Source: an uncultured Gammaproteobacteria bacterium (GTDB taxonomy: Bacteria; Patescibacteriota; Microgenomatia; UBA8517). Taken from it: a stretch of 64,000 bases of DNA. The notes beneath the pieces were generated by a model that ran no database searches, was not told the DNA's origin, and was given only the letters and a program-made list of their open reading frames with translations. Positions 35,852-62,642 of this stretch are shown one piece after another. The stretch is taken from contig CAZCXV010000002.1 in assembly GCA_964502815.1 (NCBI GenBank), positions 22,802-86,801 on the forward strand, written 5' to 3'. The position numbers and the translations under genes are program-made. Numbering within the stretch: the stretch's first letter is position 1; each line of letters starts with the position of its first letter.

Positions 35852-37066
35852 TTATTCCACCACTTTTGCAGACAATGCATTCTTGCGCATGTGAGTCTGT
35901 TTGCACAGCCATTCATACTCTTTTTTACTTAATACATCTTGGTAGTCCGAAAGCGCCTGATCTATCTCGTCTGTTGTCATCTTCCATAATCTTTCTCGAC
36001 GCAGTTCATTTTTAATTTTATTCTTTCTACCATCATCTTTTACAAACATTCCCGATAAACCACTGGGTTTATCGAGTTTACCTACTAAGTGATCCGCCAA
36101 TCGATCCTCGACTTCAACTAATCTATCCATGTTTAAAATTTTCCCATTGATTGCGAATTCGACATATTTATAAAACTCCCCAGCCAAACTCTTAAATTTC
36201 TGAGAACCAATATCAAGGCTGCCAATCTCACTTCTAGCTATTAGATTCTCTATATCTCCCAGTAAGTCAAAGTAAATTGTAAGATTGACGTACTCTAACA
36301 TTTGCTTTGTTTCATAAGCATTTAATAGATAATTATTTTGAATGTCTTCTATTTTTTTAGATAATAATTCCATAAGCCTCATGCCATCTTCATCATAGAT
36401 GTATATTTTCTTTAACTTCTCAGAGTTTTGAGGGTGAATGCTTTTAAAAACTTCCAATGTGTCTGGAGTAGAACTTGTTCTAGGTCCAAGACGGTTGTAA
36501 TCAAAAACAAAGTTAGATGGTAATAATCCTTGCTGTTGATATGATGCAATCACTTTGGCGACTGAAGAATTTCCATCGGCAATTGAACTATTAATATCTG
36601 TACGTAATTGTCTTAATACTTGTTTTTCCAAGTCGTTTCTCAACTTTTCGAAGTCATCTTTCATGTTCGGAAACAACAATTCCTTTTCTCTGATTCGCTT
36701 AAATCGTTGACTTACTGCAACTAAATCCCCGGCACCTTCTGATCTGTGCATGTGACGAGAGATAGACCGAGGTATAGCATCTTTTATGCGTCCAGAAAAT
36801 CTATCAACTGTCTGCCTTAAGCCTTCGGGCAATTCATCTCTAAATATCAAAAAATCCTCAACCGGAGCATCCAAACCCCAACCTTGCGTTTTCCCATCAA
36901 CTATTTCATGAGCCAATTGCTGCTCACTTTTTAGAGGATAATGTTGTTTTGTTACTTCCCACTCAAGAATTACGTTGGCTATAAATTCCCCATCCAATAT
37001 CTGTAATGGTTGATTGGCTTTTGCCTCAGGCTGACTTGGAGTAATTACATCTGATACTTCACTCAT
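35852..37066 (-). CDS. hypothetical protein (404 aa, acidic, no TM)
   Basis: Long clean ORF between tuf and the CoA-transferase; no recognised motifs; followed by a weak hairpin + T6 (plus 35766-35786). Confidence 0.45.
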   Translation of the reverse strand: MSEVSDVITPSQPEAKANQPLQILDGEFIANVILEWEVTKQHYPLKSEQQLAHEIVDGKTQGWGLDAPVEDFLIFRDELPEGLRQTVDRFSGRIKDAIPRSISRHMHRSEGAGDLVAVSQRFKRIREKELLFPNMKDDFEKLRNDLEKQVLRQLRTDINSSIADGNSSVAKVIASYQQQGLLPSNFVFDYNRLGPRTSSTPDTLEVFKSIHPQNSEKLKKIYIYDEDGMRLMELLSKKIEDIQNNYLLNAYETKQMLEYVNLTIYFDLLGDIENLIARSEIGSLDIGSQKFKSLAGEFYKYVEFAINGKILNMDRLVEVEDRLADHLVGKLDKPSGLSGMFVKDDGRKNKIKNELRRERLWKMTTDEIDQALSDYQDVLSKKEYEWLCKQTHMRKNALSAKVVE

Positions 37067-46600: not shown

Positions 46601-47372
46601 TAATACCTTTTGCAAGACCAATAAGCTTGTCAAACAACTCTTCTGTTCGCTCTAGGGTCATCTTCTCTTCTTCTCCTAAAGCGGTTGTTTTTTTTCTTGA
46701 ATCAAGATCAATTTCAGAAACAGCAAGGCCAGCCTGTTCCTTGTCTTTTATTTTTTCCTTAGTCTTTTCTCTCCTGGTTTGGGCATCTTTTTCAAGAAGT
46801 TCCCTTCTTTCGCCGTAAGCTTCTTTAATTTCTGCTAGTTTTGCTTCCTTTGCGGTGACCAGTTTTTTTATTGCATCAAACCTTTTGTCTTCATCAGTTG
46901 CAATAACCAAATATCTGGCAAAGTAAACTACCTGCTCAATTGCTCTTGGTGGAAGATCAAGAAGAAGAGATATCTTTGATGGTGCCCCTTTAAAAAACCA
47001 AACGTGAACAACGGGAGCTGCAAGAGAAATATGACCCATTCTTTCCCGTCTCACCCTAGCTTCAGTCACTTCAACTCCACATTTGTCGCAAATGACTCCC
47101 TTGTATCTAATTCTTTTGTACTTTCCGCAGTAACACTCCCAATCTTTAGTAGGGCCAAAAATTCTCTCATCAAAAAGGCCATCTTTTTCGGGTTTTAAAG
47201 TTCGATAGTTAATCGTCTCAGGCTTTGTTACCTCGCCATGCGACCAAATTCTAATCTCCTCAGGCGACGCCAGCCTGATCTTTAGTGCTTTAAAGTCTTC
47301 TAAGTTTCTTAAATCAAGCAATGTGTCTGTAGTGGTGTTGCTCATATATTTATTTTTTAGTCTCCTCGACAA
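43623..47372 (-). CDS. rpoC: DNA-directed RNA polymerase subunit beta'
   Basis: Zinc site CYCGKYKRIRYKGVICDKCGVEV and catalytic NADFDGDQMAVH loop; 1249 aa. Confidence 0.95.
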   Translation of the reverse strand: MSRRLKNKYMSNTTTDTLLDLRNLEDFKALKIRLASPEEIRIWSHGEVTKPETINYRTLKPEKDGLFDERIFGPTKDWECYCGKYKRIRYKGVICDKCGVEVTEARVRRERMGHISLAAPVVHVWFFKGAPSKISLLLDLPPRAIEQVVYFARYLVIATDEDKRFDAIKKLVTAKEAKLAEIKEAYGERRELLEKDAQTRREKTKEKIKDKEQAGLAVSEIDLDSRKKTTALGEEEKMTLERTEELFDKLIGLAKGIRKLGFLSEEEYDELSSYDAGDFIEVKMGAEAILNVIEKLNLEEIAVEIRKELEDTDIRGAKFIKLTKRLKIIDGMRTAKVHPGWTIMRVLPVLPPDLRPMVQLSGGRFATSDLNDLYRRVINRNNRLKHLITLGAPEIILRNEKRMLQEAVDSLIDASQRKATRRGRGKQTLRSLSDMLRGKQGRFRQNLLGKRVDYSGRSVIIVGPELRLTECGLPKEMALEMFKPFVLREMIVRGVAPNVKSAKNMLERRPPEVFDILEEITKNHPVLLNRAPTLHKLGIQAFYPILIEGNAIRVHPAVCSGFNADFDGDQMAVHIPLSAKAIEEAKTLIMSDKNLLRVSDGSPSTSPSSKEMALGVYYLTSDDPRIKVYGTVFADSGEALTAYQGGHVELRQTISVRVEGKIIDTTAGRILFNEVLPSEFGFINESVNSSLIKEILTKSFAMVGEDQVVKLIDDIKDLGFVGGTVSGLSFGVVDAQILPEKNKIIEEANIRVSEIEENFAQGLITAEEKRRLTQEVWIETTEEIADRTWEIIEPTGAIRVVIDAKVGRTSRDQIKQLAGMRGLVTDPTGKIVELPIKSNFREGLSVFEYVASGRGSRKGLTDTAIKTADAGYLTRRLVDVTHDMLVRVEDCGSKEGIEIKKSVRGNVFAKRIFGRFAASDIKTPKGKVIVKKGVFIDEEVAKKLSESEVGTAIIRSPLTCLTKYGVCQKCYGWNLADKKIVQIGVPVGVVAAQSIGEPGTQLTLRTKHSGGVIGVDVTQGLPRVEELFEARIPKILSPIAEITGKIKVDETESGWKVTIKGTGKQKDEREYIIPKASKLVVENGQLVAPGVQLASGSLDLKEILNVSGLKATQEYLVNELQAVYESQGIPINDRHFEVIVRKMTDEVKISNAGETQYLPGDIIEKAKIEEENIKMNEEGKKLASFKQIVSGVTRRALHTDSWLSAASFEQTTDILTDASLRGRVDRLLGLKENVIIGRLIPVTPDRITT

Positions 47373-50300
47373 TTATTTCCTCCATAGCCTCCGGCCCGTC
47401 TTTGATAAGTTCTATCAATGCCATTTCCTCGGCCAACACGTCTTCTTTCTTCTCAATTTTTTCATTTGCTGATTCTACCTGAGTTTCTTGCCCATCGCTA
47501 ACTTTCTTAATTACACCTTCGGCATAAATTCCCAAACCTAGAGAGTTTAGTTCCCTAACCAAAACCTTAAAAGATTCTGGAACTTTTGCTTCTGGAATTG
47601 GCTCACCTTTGACGATTGCTCCAAAAGCCTGGGCACGACCTACAATATCGTCAGATTTGATAGTCAACATTTCCTGCAAGGTGTGTGCAGCTCGGTGAGA
47701 TTCAAGCGCCCAAACTTCCATTTCTCCAAGTCTTTGCCCTCCCATTTGGGCCTTGCCGCCCAAAGGCTGCTGAGTAACAAGCGAGTATGGCCCAGTACTT
47801 CTTGCGTGCGTCTTGTCCTCAACCATGTGTTTCAATTTCATGATGTAGCTGATGCCTACTACCGTATCTTCCTTAAACGGTTCTCCAGTTCTGCCATCAA
47901 TAAGTCTGGCTTTTCCAGTTTTTGGCAAACCAGCGCTTTCGAGTTCTTCAAAAACGGTTGTCTCTTTTATCGGGTCAAAAACCGGCAGAGCCCCGGTCTC
48001 GCCTTTTTTCTTTAAGGCCCAACCCAAATGACATTCCAAAAGCTGCCCCAAGTTCATTCGAGCAAGAACTGAAAGAGGAGAAATGATGATGTCAACTGGT
48101 GTTCCGTCTTCAAGATAAGGCATATCAGCTGCCGGCATCATCTTAGCAATAACTCCTTTGTTTCCATGTCTACCGGCAATTTTATCTCCAACCATTACTT
48201 TTCTAATTTGGGCAACTTTAACGACTATTGATTTTATTACTCCAGGTCCTAAGTCATCACCTTTTACTCTATCTAAAATATTGACTTCAGTTATAATTCC
48301 ACCCTCTCCATGAGGAATCCGAAGAGAAGTATCTCTCACTTCTCTAGCCTTCTCGCCAAAAATGGCTCTCAAGAGTCTTTCTTCGCTCGTTAATTCAGTC
48401 TCCCCTTTTGGAGCAATTTTTCCAACCAAAATATCATTTGGTCCAACTTCTGCACCTAAAACAACAACCCCTTCTTCATCCAAGTTGGCAAGTTCATCTT
48501 CGCCAACGTTTGGAATGTCTGCGGTCACTTCCTCAGGTCCTAATTTTGTTTCAACAACGTCTGCCTGATATTCCTTAATATGAATAGAGGTTAAAAGATC
48601 GTCTTTAACCAATCTCTCTGAGATTAAGATAGCGTCTTCAAAACCATAACCCATAAAAGAGGTGTAGGCCACTACCATATTCTGGCCAAGTGCCAATTCG
48701 CCCTCTTCAGACGCTGGTCCGTCGATAATCAAGTCACCTTTTTTAACCTTTTGACCGGAAATCACTTTCACTTTTTGGTTGTAGGCGGTTGATTGGGCAG
48801 TTCGTAAAAATTTGGTGACGTGATAGATTGCCTTTTTGCCGCCATCTACCATTTCACAATCTCCCTGCGGTTCACCTGCGAATTTTTTGTCCAATTTAAT
48901 CTCAATCGTCTGAGCGTCTGCATATTCAACTACACCGTCAAATTCACTTCTGACAACCCGACCCATGGCGGAAGCAATCCCACTCTCCATGCCAGTTCCA
49001 ACAACTGGAGCCGCAGGATTTACTAAAGGCACAGCCTGACATTGCATATTTGAGCCCATTAAAGCACGGTTACCTTCGTCATGAGCAAGAAAAGGAATTA
49101 GAGAAGCCGATGCGCCAAAAACTTGTCTTGGGGTAATATCTATTAAATCAATAAGTTCGGGTGAGCCTTCCAAGAAAGAGCCTTTAAATCTTAAAGGTAC
49201 GCGTGTAGAAGTAATAAAACCGTCTTTGTCTACTTCTATCCCTGAGTGGGTGATATGCATTTCTTCTTCATCATCTGCCGTCAAATAAACTGTTTGCTCG
49301 GTAATCTTGGCCTTAAACTCTTTTCCCGACTTCACTTTTTCGACCACTCGGTAAGGAGTTTCCAAGAAACCATATTCGTTGACCCGAGCGTACAAAGCCA
49401 AGTACGTCACCAGTCCAATATTTGGTCCCTCCGGGCTTCTAACTGGATCAATTCTGCCATATTGAGAAGAATTGACATCGCGGATGGAAAAAGATGCCCG
49501 CTCTCTGTTTATACCTCCTGGCCCCAAAACTGTAACACGCCTTAAGTTGTCAATTTCACTTAAAGGATTGGTGTCATCTAAAATTTGGGACAACTGTGAG
49601 GTTCTATAAAACTCATTTAAAGCCGCAATTAAAGGCCTAGCATTAATTAGGATTGACGGCTGTGGTTTGTCGTCTGGAGAAATCAAACTCATTTTTTCTT
49701 TAACTGACCGCTCTAATCTTAGTAGCCCTACTCTAAAGGCGTGAGTTGCCACTAATTCTCCAACTCTTCTCAATCGTCTATTGGAGAGGTGATCAATATC
49801 GTCTACTCTGCCTGTTCCGTTTTGAAGTCCGATTAAATATTTCAGAGTGGCAACAACGTCATCCCGAGTCAAAACCCAGTTTTGTGGGGAATTTTCAATC
49901 TCAAGGCTCAGTCTTTTATTAATTTTATATCTACCGACTTTTCCCAAGTCATATCTTCTGGCGTCCGTAAATAGGGAATTGAAAAGTCCTTGAGCGTTAT
50001 CCAAAAGAGCCGGCTCTCCAGGCCTCATCTTTTTGTAAATTTCAATTAGAGCCTCCTCCTTAGTCTTCGTTGGATCTTTGGCAATAGTTTTTGAAATATA
50101 TTGGTGATCCTTGTGGATATCAACAACTCCAAAGACTTCCTTAATTTCCCTATCAGAATCCATGCCAAATGCCCGAAGAAAAGTTATGGCATTTACTTTT
50201 CTGCGTTTGTCAATACGAGCTGAGATAACGTCATTTTTTGATACTTCAAATTCCAACCAGGAGCCATGCATTGGCCTAACCTCCGCCATATAAAGCATGC

Positions 50301-50739
50301 GGCCGGTAGAATTATCCAAGTCGCCCGCAAAATAAACTCCAGGAGATCTAACTAACTGGTTGATAACTGCTCTTTCAATGCCTGAGATAATAAATGTTCC
50401 AGATTTGGTCATTTGAGGAATATCGCCAAGATAAACTTCCTGAGAGACCTCTTCACCGGTCTTTTTGTTTATTAAGGTTGCAATAATTTTAAAAGGGGAA
50501 GAAAAAGTAAGCCCTTTTTCGCGAGCAAATTTTGGCGTAATAGATGGTTCTTCGAGTGCTGGCTCGGAAAGAACTAATTGCCAATTTTTTCCAGTGAAGT
50601 CGTCTATTGGGGAGATTTCCTTGAGTTCTTGGGCGATGCCTTCTTCTAGAAACCATTTCCATGATTCCCTTTGGACCTGAGAAAGATCCATTGTTGGCAG
50701 ATTCTTTTCAATTTTTCCAAAATTTCGCCTTTGAGCCAT
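47350..50739 (-). CDS. rpoB: DNA-directed RNA polymerase subunit beta
   Basis: Start at MAQRRNFGKIE (track ORF extends to 50808 across a terminator hairpin); rifampicin-cluster region FFGSSQLSQFMDQ-like LSQILDDTNPLSE and C-terminal GGQRLGEMEVWALE. Confidence 0.95.
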   Translation of the reverse strand: MAQRRNFGKIEKNLPTMDLSQVQRESWKWFLEEGIAQELKEISPIDDFTGKNWQLVLSEPALEEPSITPKFAREKGLTFSSPFKIIATLINKKTGEEVSQEVYLGDIPQMTKSGTFIISGIERAVINQLVRSPGVYFAGDLDNSTGRMLYMAEVRPMHGSWLEFEVSKNDVISARIDKRRKVNAITFLRAFGMDSDREIKEVFGVVDIHKDHQYISKTIAKDPTKTKEEALIEIYKKMRPGEPALLDNAQGLFNSLFTDARRYDLGKVGRYKINKRLSLEIENSPQNWVLTRDDVVATLKYLIGLQNGTGRVDDIDHLSNRRLRRVGELVATHAFRVGLLRLERSVKEKMSLISPDDKPQPSILINARPLIAALNEFYRTSQLSQILDDTNPLSEIDNLRRVTVLGPGGINRERASFSIRDVNSSQYGRIDPVRSPEGPNIGLVTYLALYARVNEYGFLETPYRVVEKVKSGKEFKAKITEQTVYLTADDEEEMHITHSGIEVDKDGFITSTRVPLRFKGSFLEGSPELIDLIDITPRQVFGASASLIPFLAHDEGNRALMGSNMQCQAVPLVNPAAPVVGTGMESGIASAMGRVVRSEFDGVVEYADAQTIEIKLDKKFAGEPQGDCEMVDGGKKAIYHVTKFLRTAQSTAYNQKVKVISGQKVKKGDLIIDGPASEEGELALGQNMVVAYTSFMGYGFEDAILISERLVKDDLLTSIHIKEYQADVVETKLGPEEVTADIPNVGEDELANLDEEGVVVLGAEVGPNDILVGKIAPKGETELTSEERLLRAIFGEKAREVRDTSLRIPHGEGGIITEVNILDRVKGDDLGPGVIKSIVVKVAQIRKVMVGDKIAGRHGNKGVIAKMMPAADMPYLEDGTPVDIIISPLSVLARMNLGQLLECHLGWALKKKGETGALPVFDPIKETTVFEELESAGLPKTGKARLIDGRTGEPFKEDTVVGISYIMKLKHMVEDKTHARSTGPYSLVTQQPLGGKAQMGGQRLGEMEVWALESHRAAHTLQEMLTIKSDDIVGRAQAFGAIVKGEPIPEAKVPESFKVLVRELNSLGLGIYAEGVIKKVSDGQETQVESANEKIEKKEDVLAEEMALIELIKDGPEAMEEIIVEETKK

Positions 50740-50783
50740 GAGGGTAATTTTATTAGTCCCTGGGTAAATACCCAGTGACATGC

Positions 50784-50804
50784 AAAAACCCGTCCGAAGA
50801 CGGG
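50784..50804 (-). terminator. terminator-like hairpin CCCGTC-UUCG-GACGGG + U5 in the rpoB leader (candidate attenuator)
   Basis: Plus 50789-50804 inverted repeat with a UUCG tetraloop on the minus-strand RNA, followed by TTTTT (plus 50784-50788); ~45 nt upstream of the rpoB ATG; a second hairpin CTGGGT-ATTT-ACCCAG follows. Confidence 0.5.
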
Positions 50805-50831
50805 ACAACCTAAAAATTAGGCTTAAGGGTA

Positions 50832-52090: not shown

Positions 52091-52483
52091 TTATTTGTAT
52101 TGTACCTGATCCAAATAACTTTGCAAGATAATGGCAGCTGCATAAGCGTCTTCCATATCTTTTCTCTTCTTTCTTTTGATGCCAGCCTCACGAGCCAGAA
52201 ATTGGGCGTCTAAGGAAGATAAAGTTTCATCGTGGAAAACTACCTCAATATTAAGTTTCTCTTTTAATTTCTTACCAAACTCAAGTGCATCTTTTTTTGA
52301 ATCTCTTTCACTCTTCCCCACCACTATTCTCTCAATATTGTGCGACTTAATTATTTTTGTCAGTTTTTCAATTAGTTTTTCTTCACTTGAATACCTGATA
52401 ACTTCCAAAGGTTCAGAAATTTTGGTCTCGGCAAGAGCCACCCCTACTTTGGCTTGCCCGAAGTCAATTCCTAATAGCCGCAT
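52091..52483 (-). CDS. ruvX: Holliday junction resolvase-like RuvX/YqgF
   Basis: MRLLGIDFGQAKVGVALAE (RNase H-like first strand with catalytic D), ...KDMEDAYAAAIILQSYLD C-terminus. Confidence 0.8.
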   Translation of the reverse strand: MRLLGIDFGQAKVGVALAETKISEPLEVIRYSSEEKLIEKLTKIIKSHNIERIVVGKSERDSKKDALEFGKKLKEKLNIEVVFHDETLSSLDAQFLAREAGIKRKKRKDMEDAYAAAIILQSYLDQVQYK

Positions 52484-53120
52484 TTGCCTCCTCTGGTGGA
52501 ACAATCCTAGCTTTTACTACAAGTCTTTTTGGTCTGGTTGGATCTCCTGGTGGGGTACAGGTAACAAGGGTTAAAAATGAATCGCTCAAGTTTTGTTCCA
52601 ATACTTGGGCATCAGTTGGAACTACTTCGGTCATACTTTCGATTCGATATTTATAGCTCACGCCGTCATATGCCACAAACACTTCATCATTCATTTTTAG
52701 CCTATCCAAAGTTGAAAAAATGGTAATGTAGCTTTTGGGGTCAAAAAAAGCCGGTAAAACTGAATGGCCAAAAACCACCGCATTGCCTCTCTTTCCTGGA
52801 ACTGCAGTTCCAGGGTATTGAATTAAATGTTCTGCCAAATCTTCTCCACCAATTGCTACAGCTGCATTTTCAATTTTTAACTTTGGGATAGAAATAGTAT
52901 AAAAAACAACATTATTCGAACCAAAATCACCTGGTTTGGATTCTGGCAACCAGTTTGACAATTTCGAATAATCAATACCGTTAGTTTTCGTAAAAGTCGC
53001 AAACTTCTGGTCTTTGGTTAAATTGTAGCTAACTATTGGATAAAACACCCAGACAATAATTCCTAGGCCAACTAGACCACTGGTAATTGCAATTAATCTT
53101 AGTATTAGTTTTGTCTTCAT
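52464..53120 (-). CDS. sortase family transpeptidase
   Basis: N-terminal TM, catalytic GHSV (His) and TLVTCTPPG (TLxTC Cys) motifs, conserved Arg in RLVVKARIV. Confidence 0.7.
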   Translation of the reverse strand: MKTKLILRLIAITSGLVGLGIIVWVFYPIVSYNLTKDQKFATFTKTNGIDYSKLSNWLPESKPGDFGSNNVVFYTISIPKLKIENAAVAIGGEDLAEHLIQYPGTAVPGKRGNAVVFGHSVLPAFFDPKSYITIFSTLDRLKMNDEVFVAYDGVSYKYRIESMTEVVPTDAQVLEQNLSDSFLTLVTCTPPGDPTRPKRLVVKARIVPPEEANAAIRN

Positions 53121-53187
53121 ATTTCTAAGTCTCTCACAATTTAGCAAATCTACAACACACTCCACAAGAGATATCCTTTAAAGAAGT

Positions 53188-56100
53188 TTAAGAGCTTGTG
53201 TTTTTCTCCCACAAAACATCCATATCGTCAATCATGTATGGCGGGTTGTAAGAAAATCTTTTAGTCGTTTGGAATTTATATGATTTTCCAACTTCAGATA
53301 TTCTTTTTTCTATAGCTTTTTCAAATCCCCCACCTGTTCTATTAGTTCTAATAGCTGTATTTTTTGAAACTAATATCTTATCAAAATCATTGTTATTGGC
53401 AAATTGCTCTACTTTTTTTATTATTCCCACAAATAATGCTTCTTCATCTACGGAATATAGGTATGTACTTGAAGGATTGAAGGAGACTGACAACAGTTTT
53501 TGACCGTTTTCTTCGTATGCATGCATCAATACCAAACCCTGACAGATTGCTGTTTCTGGGTCTTTAAACACCAACTGCAAATACTCGGGCATATTCCACA
53601 TCTCTTCATCACCTGAAACACACACTCCTCCTACCATTCTTGCATTTGCTGTTTCTTTTGTCTTTGAGATATAGCCATACAAAACTTCTCTTTGCTTTCC
53701 AGAAAGTGATTCAAACTTTTCAAGTTCATCTTGTATTGCAAGTCTTTCCAATTCAAAGATATCTATAAACCTCTGGGCAGTGTATGAAGCAAACTGTTCA
53801 TCATCATATTTTCCACTTCTAATATTTGCTTCTACATTTAATGCCTCTTGCAAATTTATTTCCCCCAAATGTGTCCCTGAATCTATTTCACCATTAGTTA
53901 TTAACTTATATGCAGCTAGTGTTTTTTCTCTTTGTGACCTTAACTGAGCATAAAAAGCTTTAGTGCGCGCCTTGGGAGATTCTGTTTTATCATTAGACAA
54001 GTAATCCACAAAACTCTCGTAGCGATCAACGATTCTATCGATAGATGGTCTCATTTCTTGCCATTGTATTTCCAATTCCTCCTTTTTCTTCCTTAAGCCA
54101 TTCCTATCTTCTTCAAGTTGTTTTATCTTTTCTTTTCTTTCATCAACAATCTTAATTGCACCTGCCTTACCTATATTCTTTTGAACTCGTGATATTTCAT
54201 TATCTATATTTGCAATATCATCTAATACCTGAGCTGCTGGAATTATTACATTAAAAAATGGAATTCTATTAGGAACTACTTCCATATTTTTCTTTATTTT
54301 TTCGGCGCTACTCAAAATTTTAACAACTTGTCGAGCGAAGCTATCTGATAATCCCAGCCTGTCAATTTGCAATCTATTGATTTCATCTTGTCTTTCAGAA
54401 CTGGATGCTTCTTCAGATAATTTCTTAAAATATTCCGGCATTGCATCTGCAATAGTTTTGTTTTCCCACGCAAATTGAACGATTCTCCTGTGTACCTCTT
54501 TTATCCTGTCTGCATAGAATGTTTCCAATTCACATAAAAGTGCATATTGAGGATTATTTGCAATTCCTACTCTATCTCTTGTTCCAGCAATATAATCTGC
54601 TATATCTTCAAACTCTGCAAACTCATACTTGATTATCAAACTCTTAATTACTTCTGGATCTAAACTTTTTGTTCCATATATTGAATCAGATAGAACTAAA
54701 AATAACTTTTCTTCAGCTGTTTTAACTTCCGCTAAATTAACACTTTGCAATCCACCGATTTCTACAATTTGAGCTAATGTTTCATCAAGGTTAACAATTA
54801 GTAATTCCATTGCTTTTTGTTTGTCATAATTAAAATCTTTCATTTGGTCAGCCACAGCATATATTGGAGTTTGAATATTTTCATGAACTTGCAAATTCAA
54901 TTGTTGTCCATCTTTAACCCTAATTTCTGCTTGAGATAGTAAATCTATTTCATATCTGGGATCAATTTTATATTTTGCCAAATCTTGTGATCTGTCTTCA
55001 CATTTTTCGTTTTCCGTGTAAGATGACCAACCACTAGCATTCTCTGCATAAACATGCCTGAGTAAGTCTTTATAAAACGGCTTTTTCCGTTCTTCTTCAG
55101 AGATTATTTCTTCACCAGTCATTTTCTCGGCCAAACCTTTAAGTTGAACCATAAACATCTTCTCACTTCCATTTTGTTTGGCTTGCTTGTAAGCTTCAAC
55201 AATACCAGGAGTTATAACCCTAAATTGTTTTGCAAATTCTATAATTAGACTTCGTTCGCTTTGATCTATTACTCCTGCATCTAAACATTCTTTATATCCT
55301 CTAATAATAGAGTCTGACTTTTGTCCAAACTCTCCAATTAACCTACCAAGAAATTTGACATCCTCAGTAGTTTCCATCAGTTCTCCATGGTTAGAAAAAA
55401 CGAAATTCCAAATCTCGGACATTTTTTCACCAAGTAATGATTTTGCGTATTTCGGTATCGAGAAAATTCCTTCTAGCTCGATTTCCGTATTTCTTATCGC
55501 ATTGGTAACTTCTTGAGAAGTCAAGTATCTCAATATTTCCAACTTCTGTTGGTTTTCGTAAATTTCAGCGGACAAAGATATTACTCTTTGTAGACGTATG
55601 AGCGCATCTTTTTGTCCAATGCGGTCTCCTATTTCACTTTCAACAACCATAAAAAGCAATTTGTCTCTGAGCAGTTTTTGAAAATAGAAGCTTTTAATAT
55701 CAACCCAACCTTTTAGTTTAGGTCTACCATCTCGCATAGCATCCATGGTTTTTTCAATTTCCAATAATTTATTGTCGGTCTCAAACAAAGAAGCCGCCTC
55801 TTGCTGCGAAATTGTTCCCCTTGAAATTAAGAGATCTGCAAGTGTCTGAGTCCTTAAAGTTTCTGCAGCCAAGGATAATAATTCAGGATTTCTGTCCTCT
55901 ACATTAGTTAATATTGATATTGCAAATTCTTCTGCTTTTCTTGAACCAAGTGATACTATTCTATCGCTACCCCCAAGTATCCAACCTTCCAACACCTTTC
56001 TGTTGTTTTCAAGTCCTGGATATTTTGTGATAGCAGCGTCAATAATTTGCTGCCAGTCTGATCGTTTTGAGAGTTCATTTAAGGCGGTATTGACTGCTGA

Positions 56101-57510
56101 AACATTATATTTATGTGAACTTTCATATTCGCCATAAGAAGCTATCAAGACCAAATTTCTTATTGTCTCTGGAGTTGGATATTTAGCTAGCAATTTTATT
56201 TCTCCACCAACAGTAGAACCTGCATGTAGTGAAGACTTTAGTGCATCTTGGTATATTTTTTCGTCAATTTTTTCCAATTGATCATCTCCAAATATAGCAT
56301 TTACTTCAGAGTTTGCCTGCAAAATTTCCCAAAAACTCAAATTTGCAGGACTTTTAACAATATGTTCTGCAGATATTTCCTCTATTTTTACCGTTTCGGG
56401 ATTACTACTTACTCTCGACCCCGGCCTACCCAGTCTTTTATATTTAGTTCCAGTTGCTGTTGCTATTATTTGTTCCCGGTCAAAATCTGAAAGTATAAGG
56501 TTTATGCCCTCCGATTCATAGGCTATTTTTTTGATGTCTTCGACAAACAAACTTCCCACCATTCTTCTTAATACCGAGATATCAGATTTTTTAGTAACAA
56601 GGGTTGTCCATTCCAAGACTAAATAGCCGTTCCACAATAACGAATTTTCTCCCAAACTTTGTCTTAATTCATTAAGTTCCCTCTCTGCTTCCAAATCATT
56701 TCTCAATACTATCTGGCTAGCCATTTTTAGGGAACTAACTATTTCTTCTTCACGGCCTTGATAGATTTTATATTCTTTACACCACTTAGACAATAAAGGT
56801 ACAACACATTTGTCTATATATTCCTCCCTAACTTGAGGGATAATATTAGGACTATTTTCTAGTTCTGTCATATATTGTAAATATTGACCCCGAACTTGTT
56901 GCACTTCTCTAACAACTTCATTTTCAATGACTTCTTCTTGAAATCTCCTAATTGGAGTGCCTATATTTTGATATCTAGCAGCTTCTTCACGCAATTTTTT
57001 CCTCTCAATTCTCAAAGCATCAATTTGATTTTCCAAAACCAAAGCTCCAGGCTGTCCTTCTAGTCCCTTTTCCCATATTTCTTCGTTCAAAGAATTTATT
57101 TTTTCCGATATTCGGTTTGCTTGATAATTTCTCTTTGCCTCCCAGGCTTCAACCAATTCAGCTGTTTTAGAACCTGTCTCTAGTGCCTTTTCCACTGCAT
57201 CTCCTCTAAGATTATTTTTATCGATTTTCAATAAATACTCTGCTGACTGCTGCAACAGGTTGATTGAAGGTAAATCCATTGTTTCCACTTCTTCTAAATC
57301 TAATCTTGATTGAGACAAAGCAACTAATCTTCCTATCCTATCTTGGCTGGGAAACACCTTTGACCTTATCTCTGCGAGTCTTTGTCTTAATGGATGCTCT
57401 TCTGAAAAAGTTTTCAATTCGTTCTCGGGCTTAAGAACAGAGTCGGTGTTATTCTCTGACATGTTTAATTTTACAATACATTTGAAGCTATCTCTCAGCA
57501 GTGACCTCAA
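53188..57510 (-). CDS. giant hypothetical protein (1440 aa, cytoplasmic, coiled-coil/alpha-helical repeat-like)
   Basis: Uninterrupted 4.3-kb ORF, no signal peptide/TM, no Walker motifs found by eye. E/K-rich predicted coiled-coil stretches and HEAT-like helical repeats. Start overlaps the upstream 760-aa gene stop by 23 nt. Confidence 0.5.
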   Translation of the reverse strand: MRSLLRDSFKCIVKLNMSENNTDSVLKPENELKTFSEEHPLRQRLAEIRSKVFPSQDRIGRLVALSQSRLDLEEVETMDLPSINLLQQSAEYLLKIDKNNLRGDAVEKALETGSKTAELVEAWEAKRNYQANRISEKINSLNEEIWEKGLEGQPGALVLENQIDALRIERKKLREEAARYQNIGTPIRRFQEEVIENEVVREVQQVRGQYLQYMTELENSPNIIPQVREEYIDKCVVPLLSKWCKEYKIYQGREEEIVSSLKMASQIVLRNDLEAERELNELRQSLGENSLLWNGYLVLEWTTLVTKKSDISVLRRMVGSLFVEDIKKIAYESEGINLILSDFDREQIIATATGTKYKRLGRPGSRVSSNPETVKIEEISAEHIVKSPANLSFWEILQANSEVNAIFGDDQLEKIDEKIYQDALKSSLHAGSTVGGEIKLLAKYPTPETIRNLVLIASYGEYESSHKYNVSAVNTALNELSKRSDWQQIIDAAITKYPGLENNRKVLEGWILGGSDRIVSLGSRKAEEFAISILTNVEDRNPELLSLAAETLRTQTLADLLISRGTISQQEAASLFETDNKLLEIEKTMDAMRDGRPKLKGWVDIKSFYFQKLLRDKLLFMVVESEIGDRIGQKDALIRLQRVISLSAEIYENQQKLEILRYLTSQEVTNAIRNTEIELEGIFSIPKYAKSLLGEKMSEIWNFVFSNHGELMETTEDVKFLGRLIGEFGQKSDSIIRGYKECLDAGVIDQSERSLIIEFAKQFRVITPGIVEAYKQAKQNGSEKMFMVQLKGLAEKMTGEEIISEEERKKPFYKDLLRHVYAENASGWSSYTENEKCEDRSQDLAKYKIDPRYEIDLLSQAEIRVKDGQQLNLQVHENIQTPIYAVADQMKDFNYDKQKAMELLIVNLDETLAQIVEIGGLQSVNLAEVKTAEEKLFLVLSDSIYGTKSLDPEVIKSLIIKYEFAEFEDIADYIAGTRDRVGIANNPQYALLCELETFYADRIKEVHRRIVQFAWENKTIADAMPEYFKKLSEEASSSERQDEINRLQIDRLGLSDSFARQVVKILSSAEKIKKNMEVVPNRIPFFNVIIPAAQVLDDIANIDNEISRVQKNIGKAGAIKIVDERKEKIKQLEEDRNGLRKKKEELEIQWQEMRPSIDRIVDRYESFVDYLSNDKTESPKARTKAFYAQLRSQREKTLAAYKLITNGEIDSGTHLGEINLQEALNVEANIRSGKYDDEQFASYTAQRFIDIFELERLAIQDELEKFESLSGKQREVLYGYISKTKETANARMVGGVCVSGDEEMWNMPEYLQLVFKDPETAICQGLVLMHAYEENGQKLLSVSFNPSSTYLYSVDEEALFVGIIKKVEQFANNNDFDKILVSKNTAIRTNRTGGGFEKAIEKRISEVGKSYKFQTTKRFSYNPPYMIDDMDVLWEKNTSS

Positions 57511-59719
57511 TATTAATATTTTTGGTCACTCTAGGTAAGGCTCCAAGACGTCCAGGAAGTTTAGGAGTTGGCTTAATGACTACTCTCGAGAAGCTGGCAA
57601 TAGAACTTAAGTAATCTTGGGTGAACTTTGGCGACTTGCCAGTAATCTTTTTGGCAACTTCATCAGGGTTAATTGAAGGCAGTAAATTTGCAGAAACTTT
57701 CATTTCAACTTCAATTATTCCACCTTTGTTACTTTTGACTGTAAATTCGTTTTCAATTTGTTCATCCCGTAAGACAAAGCCATCTGGCACACTTTCCGCA
57801 AGTAAAGACTTTGATAGCTTAAGCAAATCCTCTTTGGACACTACTGGGGCAGAAGCGTTGCCTTTTAGGGTTAATTTTAAATCCTTAGCTTCATCCCCAA
57901 CTTTGTGGTTGAAGTCCTTTTGGTCAGTGGCGACAGAAGTTGCATCACCAATAATAATTTGACTGTCTTCCAAAGTTTCGTTTATGGCTGATTTACCTTT
58001 TTCTTCCAGCTCCTTGGTTACTTTTTCTTCCAAGCTTTCCCTGTCATCAGCAGAAACTGCCTGAATGTCTCTACTTGAGCCCCCACTAAAGGCACTGTCG
58101 GCAACACCGTCCACTTCGCTCTTTGGGTAATTTCCCACCTTAAATGATTCTCCTTTTGCCAAATTTGATTCCGATCCAATTGCTTCGGCAATAGCTTCAA
58201 CAGTTGTCATCCCGGGGCTGGTAGGCGAAGTTGCCGCCGATATAGACGCGGATTGGAGAGGGATAAATTTCAAGTTACTACTACTCAAAAGAACTGTTGT
58301 TGCAGTTAATTTTACAGGAGTTGCAGTCCCGTTTCTAACTTGGACCTTTCCTTTGGCTTTTTCACCAACAGTTTTGGTACCAGTAGCTATTACCTCGCCT
58401 TGGGCAGACACTTCTTTAGTAACCATTTTTCCAGTTAAAGTGTTTGAACCAGTTGCAGACCCAGATCCAGTATTAATAAAAACGTTTTGTGTCTTTGAAA
58501 TCTCTTTTGGTGAAACATAGATAATAACCTCGGCCTTTGGCAAAAACCACCAGGCGGCAAATAGGCCAACAAATAAAATAACTAAGGCAAGAGCTCCAAA
58601 TTTAAAAGGTTTGTCATTAGCCATTAAACTATCCAAATGAGTTGGCCCACTCATGGCTTTAAGAGCCACTTTCGGTAATTTTAATTCAGACTTATTTTTA
58701 AGCTTTCTCAATAATCTTCCTAGAAAAACCAGGGGGGTAAACTTTTTTACTTGGTGAACAGATTCTTCTTTGTGAATGGCAAACTCTGAAGGTTGATTAT
58801 GACTATATAAATCTTTGGTTTGTGGTCTATCCTCAAAATTATCTCCAATATCTTGACCAAGAGAAAAACCCAGCTCACGAGGATCCACTGTTTGGCTTTC
58901 AAGATTGGCTGCCTCTTTAGGAATACTTTCAGTTTCCTTAAATGTTGGCAAACTTTGACCAATCTGTTTTTTAACCAATCCTTGTACGCTTTGAGCTCCG
59001 GCAATTTCAGATGCTCCTGCAAGACTGACCGCAACTATTTTTTCTTCTGGATCAATCATTTCAATTTTTGGCGTATGCAGAAACTTCACTTTTTCATTAC
59101 CTGTCCAATCTGCTTGCGAAAGCGCATCTCTACCAAACTCCAATTCACTAATTTTTCCATCGTAGACAATAAATCTTGACGGATAATGCTCTTCAACCGG
59201 AAATCTGGTTAATCCTTCGGTTACATCTTCGACCAAAGACAAACTTCTGGCAACACTGACATTGCCGACTAAATTCCCAAGCTTAAACAAAGAGACATCT
59301 AAATATTCCTTTCCAAAACCAATTAATATTCCAGTTAAAGGCGAGCCCTCTTGACTTTTGATATAGTAGGCAAGGGCTTCGGGCAAAACTACAAAACCTG
59401 AAGGTTCGAGAGAAAGTTTGGAACAAACAACTCTAATCTTTTCTAGGTATTCAGGCTTAATGTTGCCCTCTGCCACCCAGGAAGAAGGTATGCCAAAAAC
59501 AACTTTAGACGGTTCTTCTTCGCTTTCAGGAAAATCATTGATTGCGTCAGACAAGGAAGTGTCAACTGACGTAACTAAGTCTTCATCACTTTCCCAATAA
59601 ACAGGTGTTGAGGCAGCAATTATCTTGGCAATTTTTCCATCCTCGCCCTCTTGGGTTGTCCAAATTGAAGCTTGCACCCAGCCTGTTTCAATTGTTAGTG
59701 TCCAGTAATATTCGGGCAT
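57488..59719 (-). CDS. bitopic membrane protein: degenerate actin-like (FtsA/PilM-like) cytoplasmic N-domain, 1 TM, long Ser/Thr/Gly-rich extracytoplasmic C-domain
   Basis: N-terminal LTIETGWVQASIW (phosphate-1-like) and TGILIGFGKEYLDVSLFKLGNLVGNV (phosphate-2-like, DxGxG degenerated) suggest an ASKHA fold. TM at FGALALVILFVGLFAAWWFL; C-terminal 370 aa low-complexity S/T/G-rich, no LPXTG. Confidence 0.5.
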   Translation of the reverse strand: MPEYYWTLTIETGWVQASIWTTQEGEDGKIAKIIAASTPVYWESDEDLVTSVDTSLSDAINDFPESEEEPSKVVFGIPSSWVAEGNIKPEYLEKIRVVCSKLSLEPSGFVVLPEALAYYIKSQEGSPLTGILIGFGKEYLDVSLFKLGNLVGNVSVARSLSLVEDVTEGLTRFPVEEHYPSRFIVYDGKISELEFGRDALSQADWTGNEKVKFLHTPKIEMIDPEEKIVAVSLAGASEIAGAQSVQGLVKKQIGQSLPTFKETESIPKEAANLESQTVDPRELGFSLGQDIGDNFEDRPQTKDLYSHNQPSEFAIHKEESVHQVKKFTPLVFLGRLLRKLKNKSELKLPKVALKAMSGPTHLDSLMANDKPFKFGALALVILFVGLFAAWWFLPKAEVIIYVSPKEISKTQNVFINTGSGSATGSNTLTGKMVTKEVSAQGEVIATGTKTVGEKAKGKVQVRNGTATPVKLTATTVLLSSSNLKFIPLQSASISAATSPTSPGMTTVEAIAEAIGSESNLAKGESFKVGNYPKSEVDGVADSAFSGGSSRDIQAVSADDRESLEEKVTKELEEKGKSAINETLEDSQIIIGDATSVATDQKDFNHKVGDEAKDLKLTLKGNASAPVVSKEDLLKLSKSLLAESVPDGFVLRDEQIENEFTVKSNKGGIIEVEMKVSANLLPSINPDEVAKKITGKSPKFTQDYLSSIASFSRVVIKPTPKLPGRLGALPRVTKNINIEVTAER

Positions 59720-61463
59720 ATATTCTTCTGATGCCAGCCGAGGCTGACTCTTCTTTATATATCTTAACACGCCCGTTAATTTCTTTCAGGTTAGTGACAT
59801 GCGGACCACCACAGACTTCTTTTGAAAAAAATTCACCTCGAGGGTCACCTATTGTATAGACTTTTACTTTTTCTCCATACCTTTCACCAAAAAAGGCTAC
59901 TGCACCCTCTTTAATTGCTTCAGCTAAGGTTTTTACTTCGTAAGACACAGGTAGTTCTCTTTTGATTTCTTGGTTAACTAAATCCTCAATTTCTTTTAGC
60001 TGTTCAAGCGTTAACTTTTCAGAGTGGGTAAAATCAAACCTTAACCTTTCAGCTGTGATATTACTGCCTTTTTGAGAAACATGATTTCCAAGTACCCTTC
60101 TTAAAGCTGCATGAATCAGATGTGTTGCAGTATGAAGACTTGTTGTTTCTTTGGAGTGATCTGCAAGTCCCCCTTTAAAAGTTCCGCTAGATGCAGTCCT
60201 AGATATATCTTGGTGTTTGGAAAATTCCTTTTTAAATTCTTCAACATCAACTTCCTGGCCTTTCTCTTGGAAAAGTTCTATCGTTAATTCCAAAGGAAAA
60301 CCATAAGTTTGATATAGATCAAAAGCGATCTTGCCATCAATCTTGGCAATTTTTTCTACCTCTTTCAGGCCTTTTGAAAGCGTGACTAAGAACTTTTTCT
60401 CTTCACTTTTGATGGTATTTATAATCTCAGCTTGCTTCTCAATGAGTTGTTTATAATCCTGGCCGTAAATAGAAATGACTGCCTTGGCTATTGGGCTTAA
60501 AAACTCCTCATGAACTCCAAGTTTTTTTCCAAACCTAGCAGCTCGTCTTATTAATCTTCTTAAGATATAACCTCTTTCTTTGTTTGAAGGAAAAATACCC
60601 TCAGAAATTACAAAAACGGATGCTCTAACGTGATCGGCAACAATCCGGTGCTCTTTTTTGTTGTCCACATATGTCGTATTTGTAACTTCAGCAACCTTTT
60701 TTAGAATATCTCCCCAAACAGAATCAACTTGATAATTGTCGTCAAAACCAGAAAAAACTGCGCAAGTTCTTTCAACTCCCATGCCGGTATCAACATTTTT
60801 TTGCTTTAAAGGTTCAAATTTTCCTTCTGTAGTTTTGTTGTATTGCATAAAAACATTATTCCAAATTTCAAAAAACCTTCCACAGCCGTCTCCAGGTTTG
60901 CAACCTGATCCATGGGGAACTCCAGTTGCATCGTAAAAGATTTCTGAGTCCGGGCCACAAGGCCCGGTGTGGCCTGCAGGTCCCCACCAGTTGTCTTTTT
61001 TTGGAAAAAAGTAGATTCTTTCATCAGGGATACCCAATTTCTTCCAAATATTTGCTGATTCTTCATCTTTAGGGGCATCATTATCCCCTTCAAAACAAGT
61101 CACCCAAAGCTTATTTGGATCTGCACCTAATTCACCAACCAAAAACTCATATGACCAAGTTAGAGACTCTTTTTTCCAATAGTCTCCCAAAGACCAATTA
61201 CCTAGCATTTCAAAGAAAGTGTTGTGACTGGTGTCGCCCACCTCATCAATATCGTCAGTCCTGAGGCAAAGTTGGTTATCAACAATCCTTTTTCCCCCAG
61301 GATGAACTTCTCCTAAAAGATATGGAACCAGGGGATGCATGCCTGCAGTAGTAAACAAGACTGTAGGGTCATTTTCTGGCACCAAAGAAGCAGAAGGGAT
61401 AATGGTGTGTCCCTTTTTTTTAAAATAATTAAGATATTTTTCAATTAATTCACGTCTATTCAT
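59688..61463 (-). CDS. alaS: alanine--tRNA ligase, short form lacking the C-Ala domain
   Basis: Class II core FTTAGMHPLVPY (motif 2 region), FFEMLGNWS, editing-domain HTATHLIHAAL...CGGPHV; 591 aa ending right after the editing domain. Confidence 0.9.
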   Translation of the reverse strand: MNRRELIEKYLNYFKKKGHTIIPSASLVPENDPTVLFTTAGMHPLVPYLLGEVHPGGKRIVDNQLCLRTDDIDEVGDTSHNTFFEMLGNWSLGDYWKKESLTWSYEFLVGELGADPNKLWVTCFEGDNDAPKDEESANIWKKLGIPDERIYFFPKKDNWWGPAGHTGPCGPDSEIFYDATGVPHGSGCKPGDGCGRFFEIWNNVFMQYNKTTEGKFEPLKQKNVDTGMGVERTCAVFSGFDDNYQVDSVWGDILKKVAEVTNTTYVDNKKEHRIVADHVRASVFVISEGIFPSNKERGYILRRLIRRAARFGKKLGVHEEFLSPIAKAVISIYGQDYKQLIEKQAEIINTIKSEEKKFLVTLSKGLKEVEKIAKIDGKIAFDLYQTYGFPLELTIELFQEKGQEVDVEEFKKEFSKHQDISRTASSGTFKGGLADHSKETTSLHTATHLIHAALRRVLGNHVSQKGSNITAERLRFDFTHSEKLTLEQLKEIEDLVNQEIKRELPVSYEVKTLAEAIKEGAVAFFGERYGEKVKVYTIGDPRGEFFSKEVCGGPHVTNLKEINGRVKIYKEESASAGIRRIYARILLDTNN

Positions 61464-61519: not shown

Positions 61520-61771
61520 ATGAAAGAAACAGATATTAGGGATATCTCCAAAGATAGATTCGATGTATGTAGTCGTTGTACTCTTAAAAAGAGTACAATA
61601 TCCCTTGCACTTAACGAAATCCCAAATCTAAGTGAAACACATGCAGTCTCAAATAGTTGTAAACTCAATGGAGAAGGACAATCAATGGCAACTGTAATTG
61701 TTTATTCCAATTTGGGCAAGAAGCAAGTCATTGTAGACACTTCTGGTAATTGCGAAAACTTTAATTCCTAG
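61520..61771 (+). CDS. possible leaderless small protein (83 aa, Cys-containing); alternatively non-coding alaS upstream region
   Basis: Extended -10 TGgTATTAT (61503-61511) 8 nt before the ATG at 61520; ORF contains a perfect 19-nt palindrome (61578-61596), which is unusual for coding sequence. Confidence 0.2.
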   Translation: MKETDIRDISKDRFDVCSRCTLKKSTISLALNEIPNLSETHAVSNSCKLNGEGQSMATVIVYSNLGKKQVIVDTSGNCENFNS

Positions 61772-62010
61772 ATTCTATTCTCTCCATGGGAGCTGACATC
61801 TTTGCCTTTTCTAAACATTGAAAGAATCCCGGTTAGTTTTTCTGGCCTAATAAGTCCTCCACCAAGGATTGCGTCCTCAAGGATTGAGTTTAGTCTTTTT
61901 ATTGATTTTCTTAGATCAATTATTACCATCACAATCTGCACTCCAACAATAGCCAGAAGCCCGGTAAGGGAGACTACTACAATTACAAGTAAAGTTTGTA
62001 TACCATCCAT
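61768..62010 (-). CDS. small membrane protein, DUF948/YtxG-like
   Basis: N-terminal TM (TLLVIVVVSLTGLLAIVGVQIVMVII) followed by a short helical region; architecture and size typical of DUF948. Confidence 0.35.
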   Translation of the reverse strand: MDGIQTLLVIVVVSLTGLLAIVGVQIVMVIIDLRKSIKRLNSILEDAILGGGLIRPEKLTGILSMFRKGKDVSSHGENRI

Positions 62011-62012
62011 AA

Positions 62013-62642
62013 TTAGTTTTTCAATTGTACGGTAATAACCCGCACAATGGTAGTTTCTTTTCCACTTCTTGACCTTGCAACTATCTCAATTTTTTGGGTG
62101 TCTTGATTTACCTCAATTTCGGTTGTAAATTTGCCGTCATCTGTCACCAATGCCTGCTGATTATTTATTTTAATTGTTGCTCCAGGATCAGTTTTTCCCT
62201 CCACCTGCAAATTACCAATATTAACAACCTGAGCTTCACCAGGTTTTATTACTTCTAACTTTGGAGAACTTGTAAAGCCAATATATTGCATTACCAAATA
62301 GCCTAGAATTGCCAGTAAAATAATTGTTGTCCCGGTTATAAAAGTCAATCTTGGCGTCCAAACAAATTTATTTTCTACATCGGGCTTTGGGGTAAGTGAA
62401 AGTTTCGTTGGTGGATAATCTCTTCTCAAAAAAGCCAGAGCTTGGTCAGAACTTAACTCCAGAGAATCGGCAACTGATCTTACAAAACCCCTGACTACAG
62501 GGTACTCGGGCAGAGTTTGCCAATCTTCACTTTCCAAGGCCTGCAAAAAATCTTTTTTAATTTTTGTCAATCCTTCCAAATGCGCTTTGGAATATGATTT
62601 TTTCATTCTTGCCTCTTTAAGAAGCTGACCTATTGTTACCAT
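62013..62642 (-). CDS. rodZ: RodZ-like protein (N-terminal HTH, TM, C-terminal beta domain)
   Basis: HTH MVTIGQLLKEARMKKSYSKAHLEGLTKIKKDFLQALE, TM LTFITGTTIILLAILGYLVM, C-terminal extracytoplasmic domain. Confidence 0.5.
   Translation of the reverse strand: MVTIGQLLKEARMKKSYSKAHLEGLTKIKKDFLQALESEDWQTLPEYPVVRGFVRSVADSLELSSDQALAFLRRDYPPTKLSLTPKPDVENKFVWTPRLTFITGTTIILLAILGYLVMQYIGFTSSPKLEVIKPGEAQVVNIGNLQVEGKTDPGATIKINNQQALVTDDGKFTTEIEVNQDTQKIEIVARSRSGKETTIVRVITVQLKN

Follow-up and report, generated by a model that had tools for sequence, protein, structure and literature searches.

Amid the housekeeping genes of an uncultured groundwater bacterium, one open reading frame (ORF) encodes a large membrane protein, which raises the question of what this protein is built from and what it might do in the cell envelope. 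The ORF lies in a 64,000-nucleotide stretch of DNA (positions 22,802 to 86,801 of contig CAZCXV010000002.1, assembly GCA_964502815.1; hereafter, the window) that derives from groundwater metagenome SRR2177968, has a GC content of ~38%, and carries nearly all of its genes on the minus strand. An earlier note on this DNA had placed a membrane protein at 57488–59719, and this holds: positions 57488..59719 (minus strand) contain a complete coding sequence of 743 amino acids plus stop, running from an ATG at 59719 to a stop codon at 57488–57490, and an identical protein exists in public databases (P0001). An alternative GTG start at 59770 would add 17 residues; the ATG is the likely start because the two closest relatives (~60% identity), which have the N-terminus MPE[FH]YW in common, and the identical 743-residue public protein begin alike. 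We are confident of two aspects of this protein, namely that it joins an actin-fold domain inside the cell, a transmembrane (TM) helix, and a Baseplate_J domain outside the cell, and that its gene is linked to that of a sortase. That the protein would act as a trans-membrane scaffold in cooperation with this sortase is an inference that we advance tentatively, and the full statement, embracing architecture, linkage, and scaffold role, falls a little short of an even chance.

The outer part of the protein (residues 395–743; 57491..58537, minus strand) was assigned by AlphaFold2 modelling, Foldseek, and Pfam to Baseplate_J, as an extracytoplasmic domain of the gpJ/gp47/gp6-like wedge type. In the C-terminal AlphaFold2 model (mean local confidence, pLDDT, 87.5; predicted TM-score, pTM, 0.58), the TM helix is followed by long beta-hairpins, sheets, and helices, and when this domain was searched against the Protein Data Bank (PDB) with Foldseek, it matched five solved baseplates with a probability of 1.0 and E-values of 1e-5 to 1e-4. 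These are the baseplates of cyanophage A-1(L) (8kea_b and 8kea_d, E 1.2e-5, ~340 columns), of phi812 (9euf_I) and diffocin (8v3w_0), in each of which a J-type wedge protein is matched over ~340 columns, of XM1 (7kh1, chain A5; again a J-type wedge protein), and of Mu (9ki1_O; 99 columns, root-mean-square deviation 2.9 Å, 21% identity). The named best matches of the domain in BFVD were likewise all Baseplate J-like. At the sequence level, Pfam Baseplate_J (PF04865) matched 49 of 50 relatives (best E 9e-8), and while the window protein itself scored 14 bits (E 0.031) against a gathering cut-off of 21.1, divergent members exceeded that cut-off with 24.3 and 22.0 bits, so membership in Baseplate_J holds at the level of the family. 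No PHROG matched the window protein; a distant member, from the Daviesbacteria-type locus L081, matched the PHROG 'baseplate wedge subunit' (E 8e-5).

This region had previously been described as an extracytoplasmic tail of ~370 residues, of low complexity and rich in Ser, Thr, and Gly. Its location outside the membrane, after the TM helix, is as described; its length is 349 residues (395–743), and its composition is only mildly enriched (S 11.5%, K 10.2%, T 8.4%, G 7.4%). In an alignment of 50 relatives, which underlies all regional conservation figures given here (with identity relative to the query), the C-domain has 46% identity and only 1% gaps. This conservation, together with the confidently folded model and the homology to Baseplate_J, rules out a disordered or low-complexity tail.

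The other end of the protein (residues 1–246; 58982..59719, minus strand) is, by its AlphaFold2 model, its Foldseek matches, and its motif columns, a minimal ASKHA (actin-fold) domain located in the cytoplasm. Modelling of residues 1–255 from an 83-sequence alignment yielded a pLDDT of 94.7 and a pTM of 0.91, with a succession of beta-beta-beta-alpha-beta-alpha-beta-alpha that occurs twice and constitutes a bare ASKHA core (double RNaseH-like); order is lost after residue 248, and pLDDT is below 50 from residue 249. A Foldseek search of the PDB with this domain returned 498 matches at E ≤ 0.001, the best 50 of which were all ASKHA proteins. Matched with a probability of 1.00 were PPX/GppA (6pc0, E 1e-8), FtsA (7q6i, E 4e-8, TMq 0.59), and PilM (5eox and 5eq6, E ~2e-7, TMq up to 0.60 for 5eq6), and further matches included EutJ (probability 1.0), NTPDases, additional structures of FtsA (4a2a and 1e4f), and PilM 3jc8; MreB was outside the best 50. 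The model and its matches support the ASKHA/actin fold of the N-domain. The earlier reading of an FtsA/PilM-like actin fold was therefore correct as to the fold and its N-terminal position; the FtsA/PilM label is not specific, since PPX/GppA scores equally, and the proposed span of residues ~20–330 needs correction, the folded part being confined to residues 1–246 and followed by a poorly conserved linker. At ~245 residues, the domain leaves no space for the 1C or 2B subdomains of FtsA and PilM, and at the positions where insertions would sit, the model has loops of 10–11 residues.

The similarity to ASKHA proteins does not extend to sequence. Pfam, NCBIfam, and profile searches of PDB sequences with both full-length and N-domain-only alignments provided no link between the N-domain and any ASKHA family, and because they gave noise or nothing, sequence-level kinship with FtsA, PilM, or PPX was rejected. 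A Pfam scan of the relatives produced two matches to PF07419 'PilM' at E 0.086; this is an unrelated plasmid PilM family. The two peptides that had been singled out as resembling phosphate-binding motifs, LTIETGWVQASIW and TGILIGFGKEYLDVSL, correspond to residues 8–20 and 129–144, and the suggestion that their catalytic Asp and Gly positions are degenerate is borne out by the family columns, in which the acidic and glycine positions are non-canonical. Among relatives of the Woesebacteria type, the phosphate-1 site reads Y-W-[SA]-L-V-I-E-P-G-W, with an invariant E11 and a variable G13. The phosphate-2 site reads [VI][VI][LI]-G-x-G-[KR]-E, with no Asp. Neither the canonical DxG of phosphate-1 nor the DxGG[ST] of phosphate-2 is present, and no Asp occurs at the expected strand ends. 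In the Daviesbacteria type, the phosphate-1 positions differ and are also non-canonical (G/S/T/A-x-E; NIGSEK in L081), with E11 replaced. Judging from these positions, whose register was set by predicted strands, the N-domain appears to be non-catalytic.

The two folded parts are connected by a variable, flexible cytoplasmic linker (residues 247–372; 58604..58981, minus strand; 20% identity, 47% gaps), which is basic near the membrane, and by a TM helix (residues 373–394; 58538..58603, minus strand; 41% identity, 0% gaps) that ends in a conserved WW. As had been proposed, there is a single membrane span: residues 373–394 form the one strong hydrophobic segment (Kyte-Doolittle mean 2.36 over 19 residues from residue 375), which coincides with helix 3–25 of the C-terminal model, and one hydrophobic helix occurs at the same position in 361 of 362 relatives of full-length size. 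The N-side flank of this helix is the more basic one, its net charge over the 20 flanking residues being +3.5 as compared to +0.5 for the C-side flank, and hydropathy revealed no signal-like hydrophobic stretch at the N-terminus. Hydropathy, the charge bias of the flanks, and the lack of a signal-like N-terminus place the N-domain and linker in the cytoplasm and the C-domain outside, which fits a bitopic protein with its N-terminus in and its C-terminus out.

Within the variable linker, one short stretch is conserved: residues 282–291 (58847..58876, minus strand) read ELGFSLGQDI and represent the family pattern [DE][LVM]GF..G(x)D[IV], whose G284, F285, and D290 are invariant in alignment A1. 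The motif was found in 114 of 120 Woesebacteria-type and 117 of 120 Daviesbacteria-type relatives and, by the strict pattern, in 60 of 122 more diverse representatives, as compared to 3 of 362 shuffled linkers that served as a control. It is retained down to an overall identity of 27%, and in Woesebacteria-type members it precedes the TM helix by a median of 76 residues.

The fusion is not peculiar to the window. A word-indexed search recovered more than 679 relatives at E ≤ 0.001, and among the 120 matches listed, query coverage was 99–100% and identity 41–60%; named relatives among them were Woesebacteria, Microgenomates, or Patescibacteria, and some were annotated as 'baseplate J/gp47 family protein'. 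The member from L081, which is 27% identical to the window protein, has 494 relatives of its own, named Daviesbacteria and of equal length and layout. Actin-fold domain, TM helix, and Baseplate_J are together in every full-length member. When the N-domain alone (55% identity, 8% gaps) was compared to 1.84 billion cluster representatives in a full phmmer scan, there were 1256 matches at E ≤ 1e-3 and 940 at E ≤ 1e-10, and most of the best 150 were 670–820 amino acids long with the domain at their extreme N-terminus (shorter ones may be fragments), indicating that the N-domain occurs mainly in this single architecture.

To place the gene in its genomic context, we scanned one genome per species, which yielded 79 species-level loci, and assessed synteny by tblastn of the window's neighbouring proteins across 81 loci. 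Every locus examined has one copy of the gene, the taxa are Microgenomates of the Woesebacteria and Daviesbacteria types, and no paralogues were found in the window or in the flanks of related loci; the family thus occupies 79 species-level Microgenomates genomes, once per locus, in a housekeeping operon. Many of the TPA_asm metagenome-assembled genomes with this Microgenomates-type block (L004–L081) bear the title 'uncultured Gammaproteobacteria bacterium', and in one the title gives 'Alphaproteobacteria', apparently through mislabelled taxonomy. PADLOC detected no defence system at the locus, and a defensive role for the protein was rejected.

The partner that recurs beside this gene is a sortase. 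In the window, the sortase gene is at 52464..53165 (minus strand; Pfam Sortase, E 3e-25), downstream of the gene for the fusion protein and parted from it by an inserted giant ORF. Elsewhere, the common gene order is FtsK, a RodZ-like HTH_25 protein, a small TM protein, AlaRS, the fusion protein, sortase, RuvX, MltG/YceG, and RpoB, and the sortase adjoins the fusion protein in 78 of 81 loci. The gap between the stop of the one and the start of the other has a median of 2 nucleotides, and 34 of 41 measured gaps fall within −26 to +30 nucleotides, with many ATGA overlaps; coupling of the two genes is tight and often translational. The pair is preserved in the Daviesbacteria-type L081 and also in the divergent locus L085, where NUDIX and other genes intervene between the sortase and ruvX. 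A previous study reported this sortase family to be near-ubiquitous in Microgenomates and patchy elsewhere (PMC6744442), so that the sortase tied to our protein is one that distinguishes Microgenomates; the distribution of the fusion-protein family matches the one reported there for the sortase, and the supplement of that study has no 'Baseplate' entry.

The fusion protein does not itself appear to be what the sortase acts upon. Its C-terminus (…LPGRLGALPRVTKNINIEVTAER) lacks both a hydrophobic tail and an LPXTG-type sorting signal and, in the model, contributes strands to the fold; for want of a C-terminal sorting signal, the protein was rejected as a sortase substrate. Members of the Woesebacteria type have a near-invariant NYPK in their outer domain (residues 530–533; 58123–58134, minus strand) that is similar to YPKN, the pilin motif of which pilus sortases make use. 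As a lysine acceptor for the sortase it was also rejected: some Woesebacteria-type members have Arg or Thr in place of the Lys, and the motif is absent from 120 of 120 members of the Daviesbacteria type, of which L081 nonetheless pairs with a sortase. Given its absence from the Daviesbacteria type, NYPK is probably no general sortase acceptor.

The ORF that separates the two genes in the window (53188..57510, minus strand; 1440 amino acids from a TTG, or 1424 from an ATG at 57462) had been noted as a giant cytoplasmic protein next to the fusion; a partnership of the two did not survive comparison with related loci. By tblastn, it has no match in any of the 81 related loci, and it is missing beside the 60%-identical relative P0002; it has no Pfam match over the gathering cut-off, no PADLOC or PDB-sequence match, and a single weak match in PHROGs (E 0.035). 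Its absence from all of these loci and from the closest relative rules it out as a functional partner, the conserved neighbour being the sortase. Inserted exactly between two genes that normally overlap, the giant ORF is a recent lineage-specific insertion into this junction and lies outside the conserved module. A different insertion is present at the same junction in L078 (2625–4797), where there are two opposite-strand genes encoding 597 and 116 amino acids, with no PADLOC matches, and insertions may recur at this junction.

How might the two ends of the protein work together? The N-domain is probably a non-catalytic module for interaction or oligomerisation, as in GspL, PilM, and FtsA, and it may have the linker motif of its own chain or of a neighbouring one as its ligand. 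On the other side is the baseplate-J domain, a module that in phages dimerises and docks peripheral fibres and that here may make up a platform at the membrane's outer face. Together, the inner and outer domains would make up a scaffold that assembles or positions a structure of the cell surface or cell wall along with the co-expressed sortase.

Several points weigh against this proposal. The C-domain has a global TM-score of only ~0.2 to baseplate proteins, such that the similarity is local and domain-wise and the arrangement of subdomains may differ, and its oligomerisation in the manner of a phage wedge is hypothetical. No ORF in the window has a canonical LPXTG-type sorting signal, and because the entire 10-kb block is syntenic, adjacency to the sortase could in part reflect an inherited gene order. 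The loss of nucleotide binding was deduced from motif positions placed by way of predicted secondary structure, an invariant Glu (E11) persists near the phosphate site in Woesebacteria, and topology was judged by hydropathy and charge. Finally, nothing relevant to this architecture turned up in the searchable literature.

The scaffold could be taken further: Microgenomates might have domesticated a phage wedge protein as a core part of their envelope, which, tethered through one TM helix to a cytoplasmic pseudo-actin domain, would assemble into an ordered platform outside the membrane and act with the near-universal sortase of the lineage to build or anchor a surface organelle, e.g., the base of a host-attachment fibre or pilus. 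This more elaborate version is on the unlikely side; if true, baseplate architecture would here serve the cell surface with no contractile injection system involved.

Other explanations of the locus assign the protein to machinery that is already known. It might be a component of the divisome or elongasome, standing in for or supplementing FtsA or MreB and linking the cytoplasmic cell-cycle machinery to the wall by way of its outer domain, as could be supposed from the presence of ftsK, the RodZ-like HTH_25 membrane protein, and mltG in the conserved block, and from the high rank of FtsA in the structural comparison (7q6i, TMq 0.59). However, alaS–ruvX–mltG is an old housekeeping cluster in many bacteria, into which the fusion protein–sortase pair looks to have been inserted. 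The N-domain, moreover, is without 1C and 2B, the subdomains with which FtsA binds its partners and FtsZ, MreB is outside the best 50 Foldseek matches, and another Microgenomates genome is reported to encode MreBCD separately (PMC7143001), all of which make a divisome role unlikely. As to the two genes of the block that come between ftsK and alaS, the RodZ-like protein (62013–62642, minus strand) combines HTH_25 with a TM helix and an Ig-like outer domain (Glucodextran_B/Big_6), and the match of its helix-turn-helix to the RodZ model is confined to the N-terminus of that model; its neighbour is an 80-amino-acid TM protein (61768–62010, minus strand), and the two are kept in this position in 69 and 67 of 81 related loci, respectively.

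A variant type IV pilus alignment protein, in which PilM and PilN are fused, the linker motif serves as the PilN peptide, and the outer domain replaces PilN/PilO, is quite unlikely. The layout mirrors PilM plus PilN, or GspL, PilM structures match the N-domain (5eq6, TMq 0.60; 3jc8), and type IV pili are prominent in members of the candidate phyla radiation (CPR) (PMC6744442). Yet CPR genomes are reported to have canonical PilM, PilN, and PilO co-located with PilB and PilC, there are no pilus genes in the annotated flanks of L001, L082, L084, and L085, and the protein matches neither PilM_2 nor T2SSL in Pfam. The outer domain, too, is Baseplate_J-like and not the periplasmic domain of the PilN/GspL type that would be expected.

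That the N-domain is instead an active ASKHA enzyme or a nucleotide-dependent switch (a PPX/GppA-like phosphatase or a kinase-like sensor) coupled to the outer domain is highly improbable. The best Foldseek matches are to PPX/GppA (E 1e-8), which are likewise insertion-poor ASKHA proteins, and in the Woesebacteria type the acidic residues E11, E114, D165, E168, and E238 are invariant, and D53 nearly so; but the canonical phosphate-1 DxG and phosphate-2 DxGG are absent, E11 is replaced in the Daviesbacteria type, and no enzyme family is matched at the sequence level. A prophage, tailocin, or contractile-injection remnant lying here by chance, which the C-domain would recall because its family is otherwise typical of phage and tailocin baseplates, is close to refuted, given the same housekeeping-operon position in 79 species-level genomes, the TM helix and actin-fold domain fused to it in every full-length member, the lack of relatives among IMG/VR viral contigs and of a PHROG match for the window protein, and the absence of any other baseplate or tail gene (gp25/W, I, hub, sheath, or tube) from the annotated flanks and of any tail gene among ten further window ORFs scanned.

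The remainder of the window is ordinary, in that the other genes checked are housekeeping genes (RecA, RNase Y, SecY, MiaA, and RpoB), and a few of its features deserve mention. The alanyl-tRNA synthetase gene (59688–61463, minus strand) is short, encoding 591 amino acids with only the tRNA-synt_2c and tRNA_SAD domains, and its 3' end shares 32 nucleotides with the start of the gene for the fusion protein, an overlap also seen in L084. A C-5 cytosine DNA methyltransferase with an N-terminal MerR/HTH domain (23124–24395, plus strand) adjoins secY and runs opposite to almost all other genes of the window. Between the translation-factor genes and a CoA-transferase gene, there is an ORF of 404 amino acids (35852–37066, minus strand) with no Pfam match at E ≤ 0.001. 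The window's rpoB and rpoC are separate ORFs (47350–50808 and 43623–47372) that overlap by 23 nucleotides; in a related Microgenomates genome (L001, 14585–21652), they were called as one fused product of 2355 amino acids with both Rpb2 and Rpb1 domains.

CPR bacteria (Patescibacteria) are an abundant but uncultured group, presumed to live in attachment to other cells, and most membrane proteins specific to their lineages lack an assigned role. For one such family, a 'hypothetical protein' or partial 'baseplate J' annotation becomes a concrete, testable structural hypothesis, and core cell biology gains a further example of a recruited phage structural module. In these genomes, moreover, a 'baseplate J' annotation is not to be taken as a sign of a prophage. 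The fold family of each domain is already known, and the C-domain is already labelled in some databases; the actin-fold N-domain, its fusion, its status as a core gene, and its coupling to a sortase appear undescribed in the searchable literature. The architecture had initially been called unfamiliar, which is apt for this particular fusion, whereas the general layout has a precedent in GspL.

Set beside known systems, the protein shares parts with each and coincides with none. The N-terminal ASKHA domain of PPX/GppA offers the best Foldseek E-value (6pc0, 1e-8) and a similarly compact, two-lobed core, but the window protein does not conserve its catalytic motifs, has no Pfam Ppx-GppA match, and differs in context and architecture. 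With FtsA, it has in common the ASKHA fold, attachment to the membrane, and some of the best-ranking structural matches (7q6i, 4a2a, and 1e4f). It differs from FtsA in having neither the 1C (SHS2) and 2B subdomains nor canonical ATP motifs, in matching neither SHS2_FTSA nor FtsA in Pfam, in showing no relation at the sequence level, and in possessing a true TM helix and a 349-residue outer domain where FtsA has a C-terminal amphipathic helix. The J/gp47/gp6 wedge proteins (PF04865) of phages, tailocins, and type VI secretion systems are homologues of the C-domain, and the homology spans roughly the full length of a small J-type protein (~340 columns). Unlike those proteins, however, the C-domain is part of a fusion with an actin-fold domain and owes its anchorage outside the cell to a TM helix; its gene is part of a housekeeping operon and not of a tail module, there are no genes for a partner wedge, hub, sheath, or tube in the vicinity, and the global TM-score is ~0.2.

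The closest functional analogues appear to be GspL/EpsL of type II secretion and PilM–PilN of type IV pili, which are non-enzymatic trans-membrane adaptors that combine a cytoplasmic actin fold with a TM helix and an outer domain. By sequence, the family belongs to neither: the window protein has no Pfam match to T2SSL/GspL_C or to PilM_2, no 1C-like insertion, and no pilN/O/B/C locus in the flanks of L001, L082, L084, and L085. There are no genes for secretion or pilus ATPases near it, the partner gene being the sortase, and its outer domain is a 350-residue Baseplate_J homologue as opposed to the small ferredoxin-like domain of GspL and PilN. The study that reported the distribution of the sortase also mentions a 'GspL domain PilM' (PMC6744442). 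The likeness is one of organisation: as in GspL, a bitopic protein links an actin-fold domain in the cytoplasm through one TM helix to an outer domain, and its short conserved linker peptide is reminiscent of the N-terminus with which PilN binds PilM.

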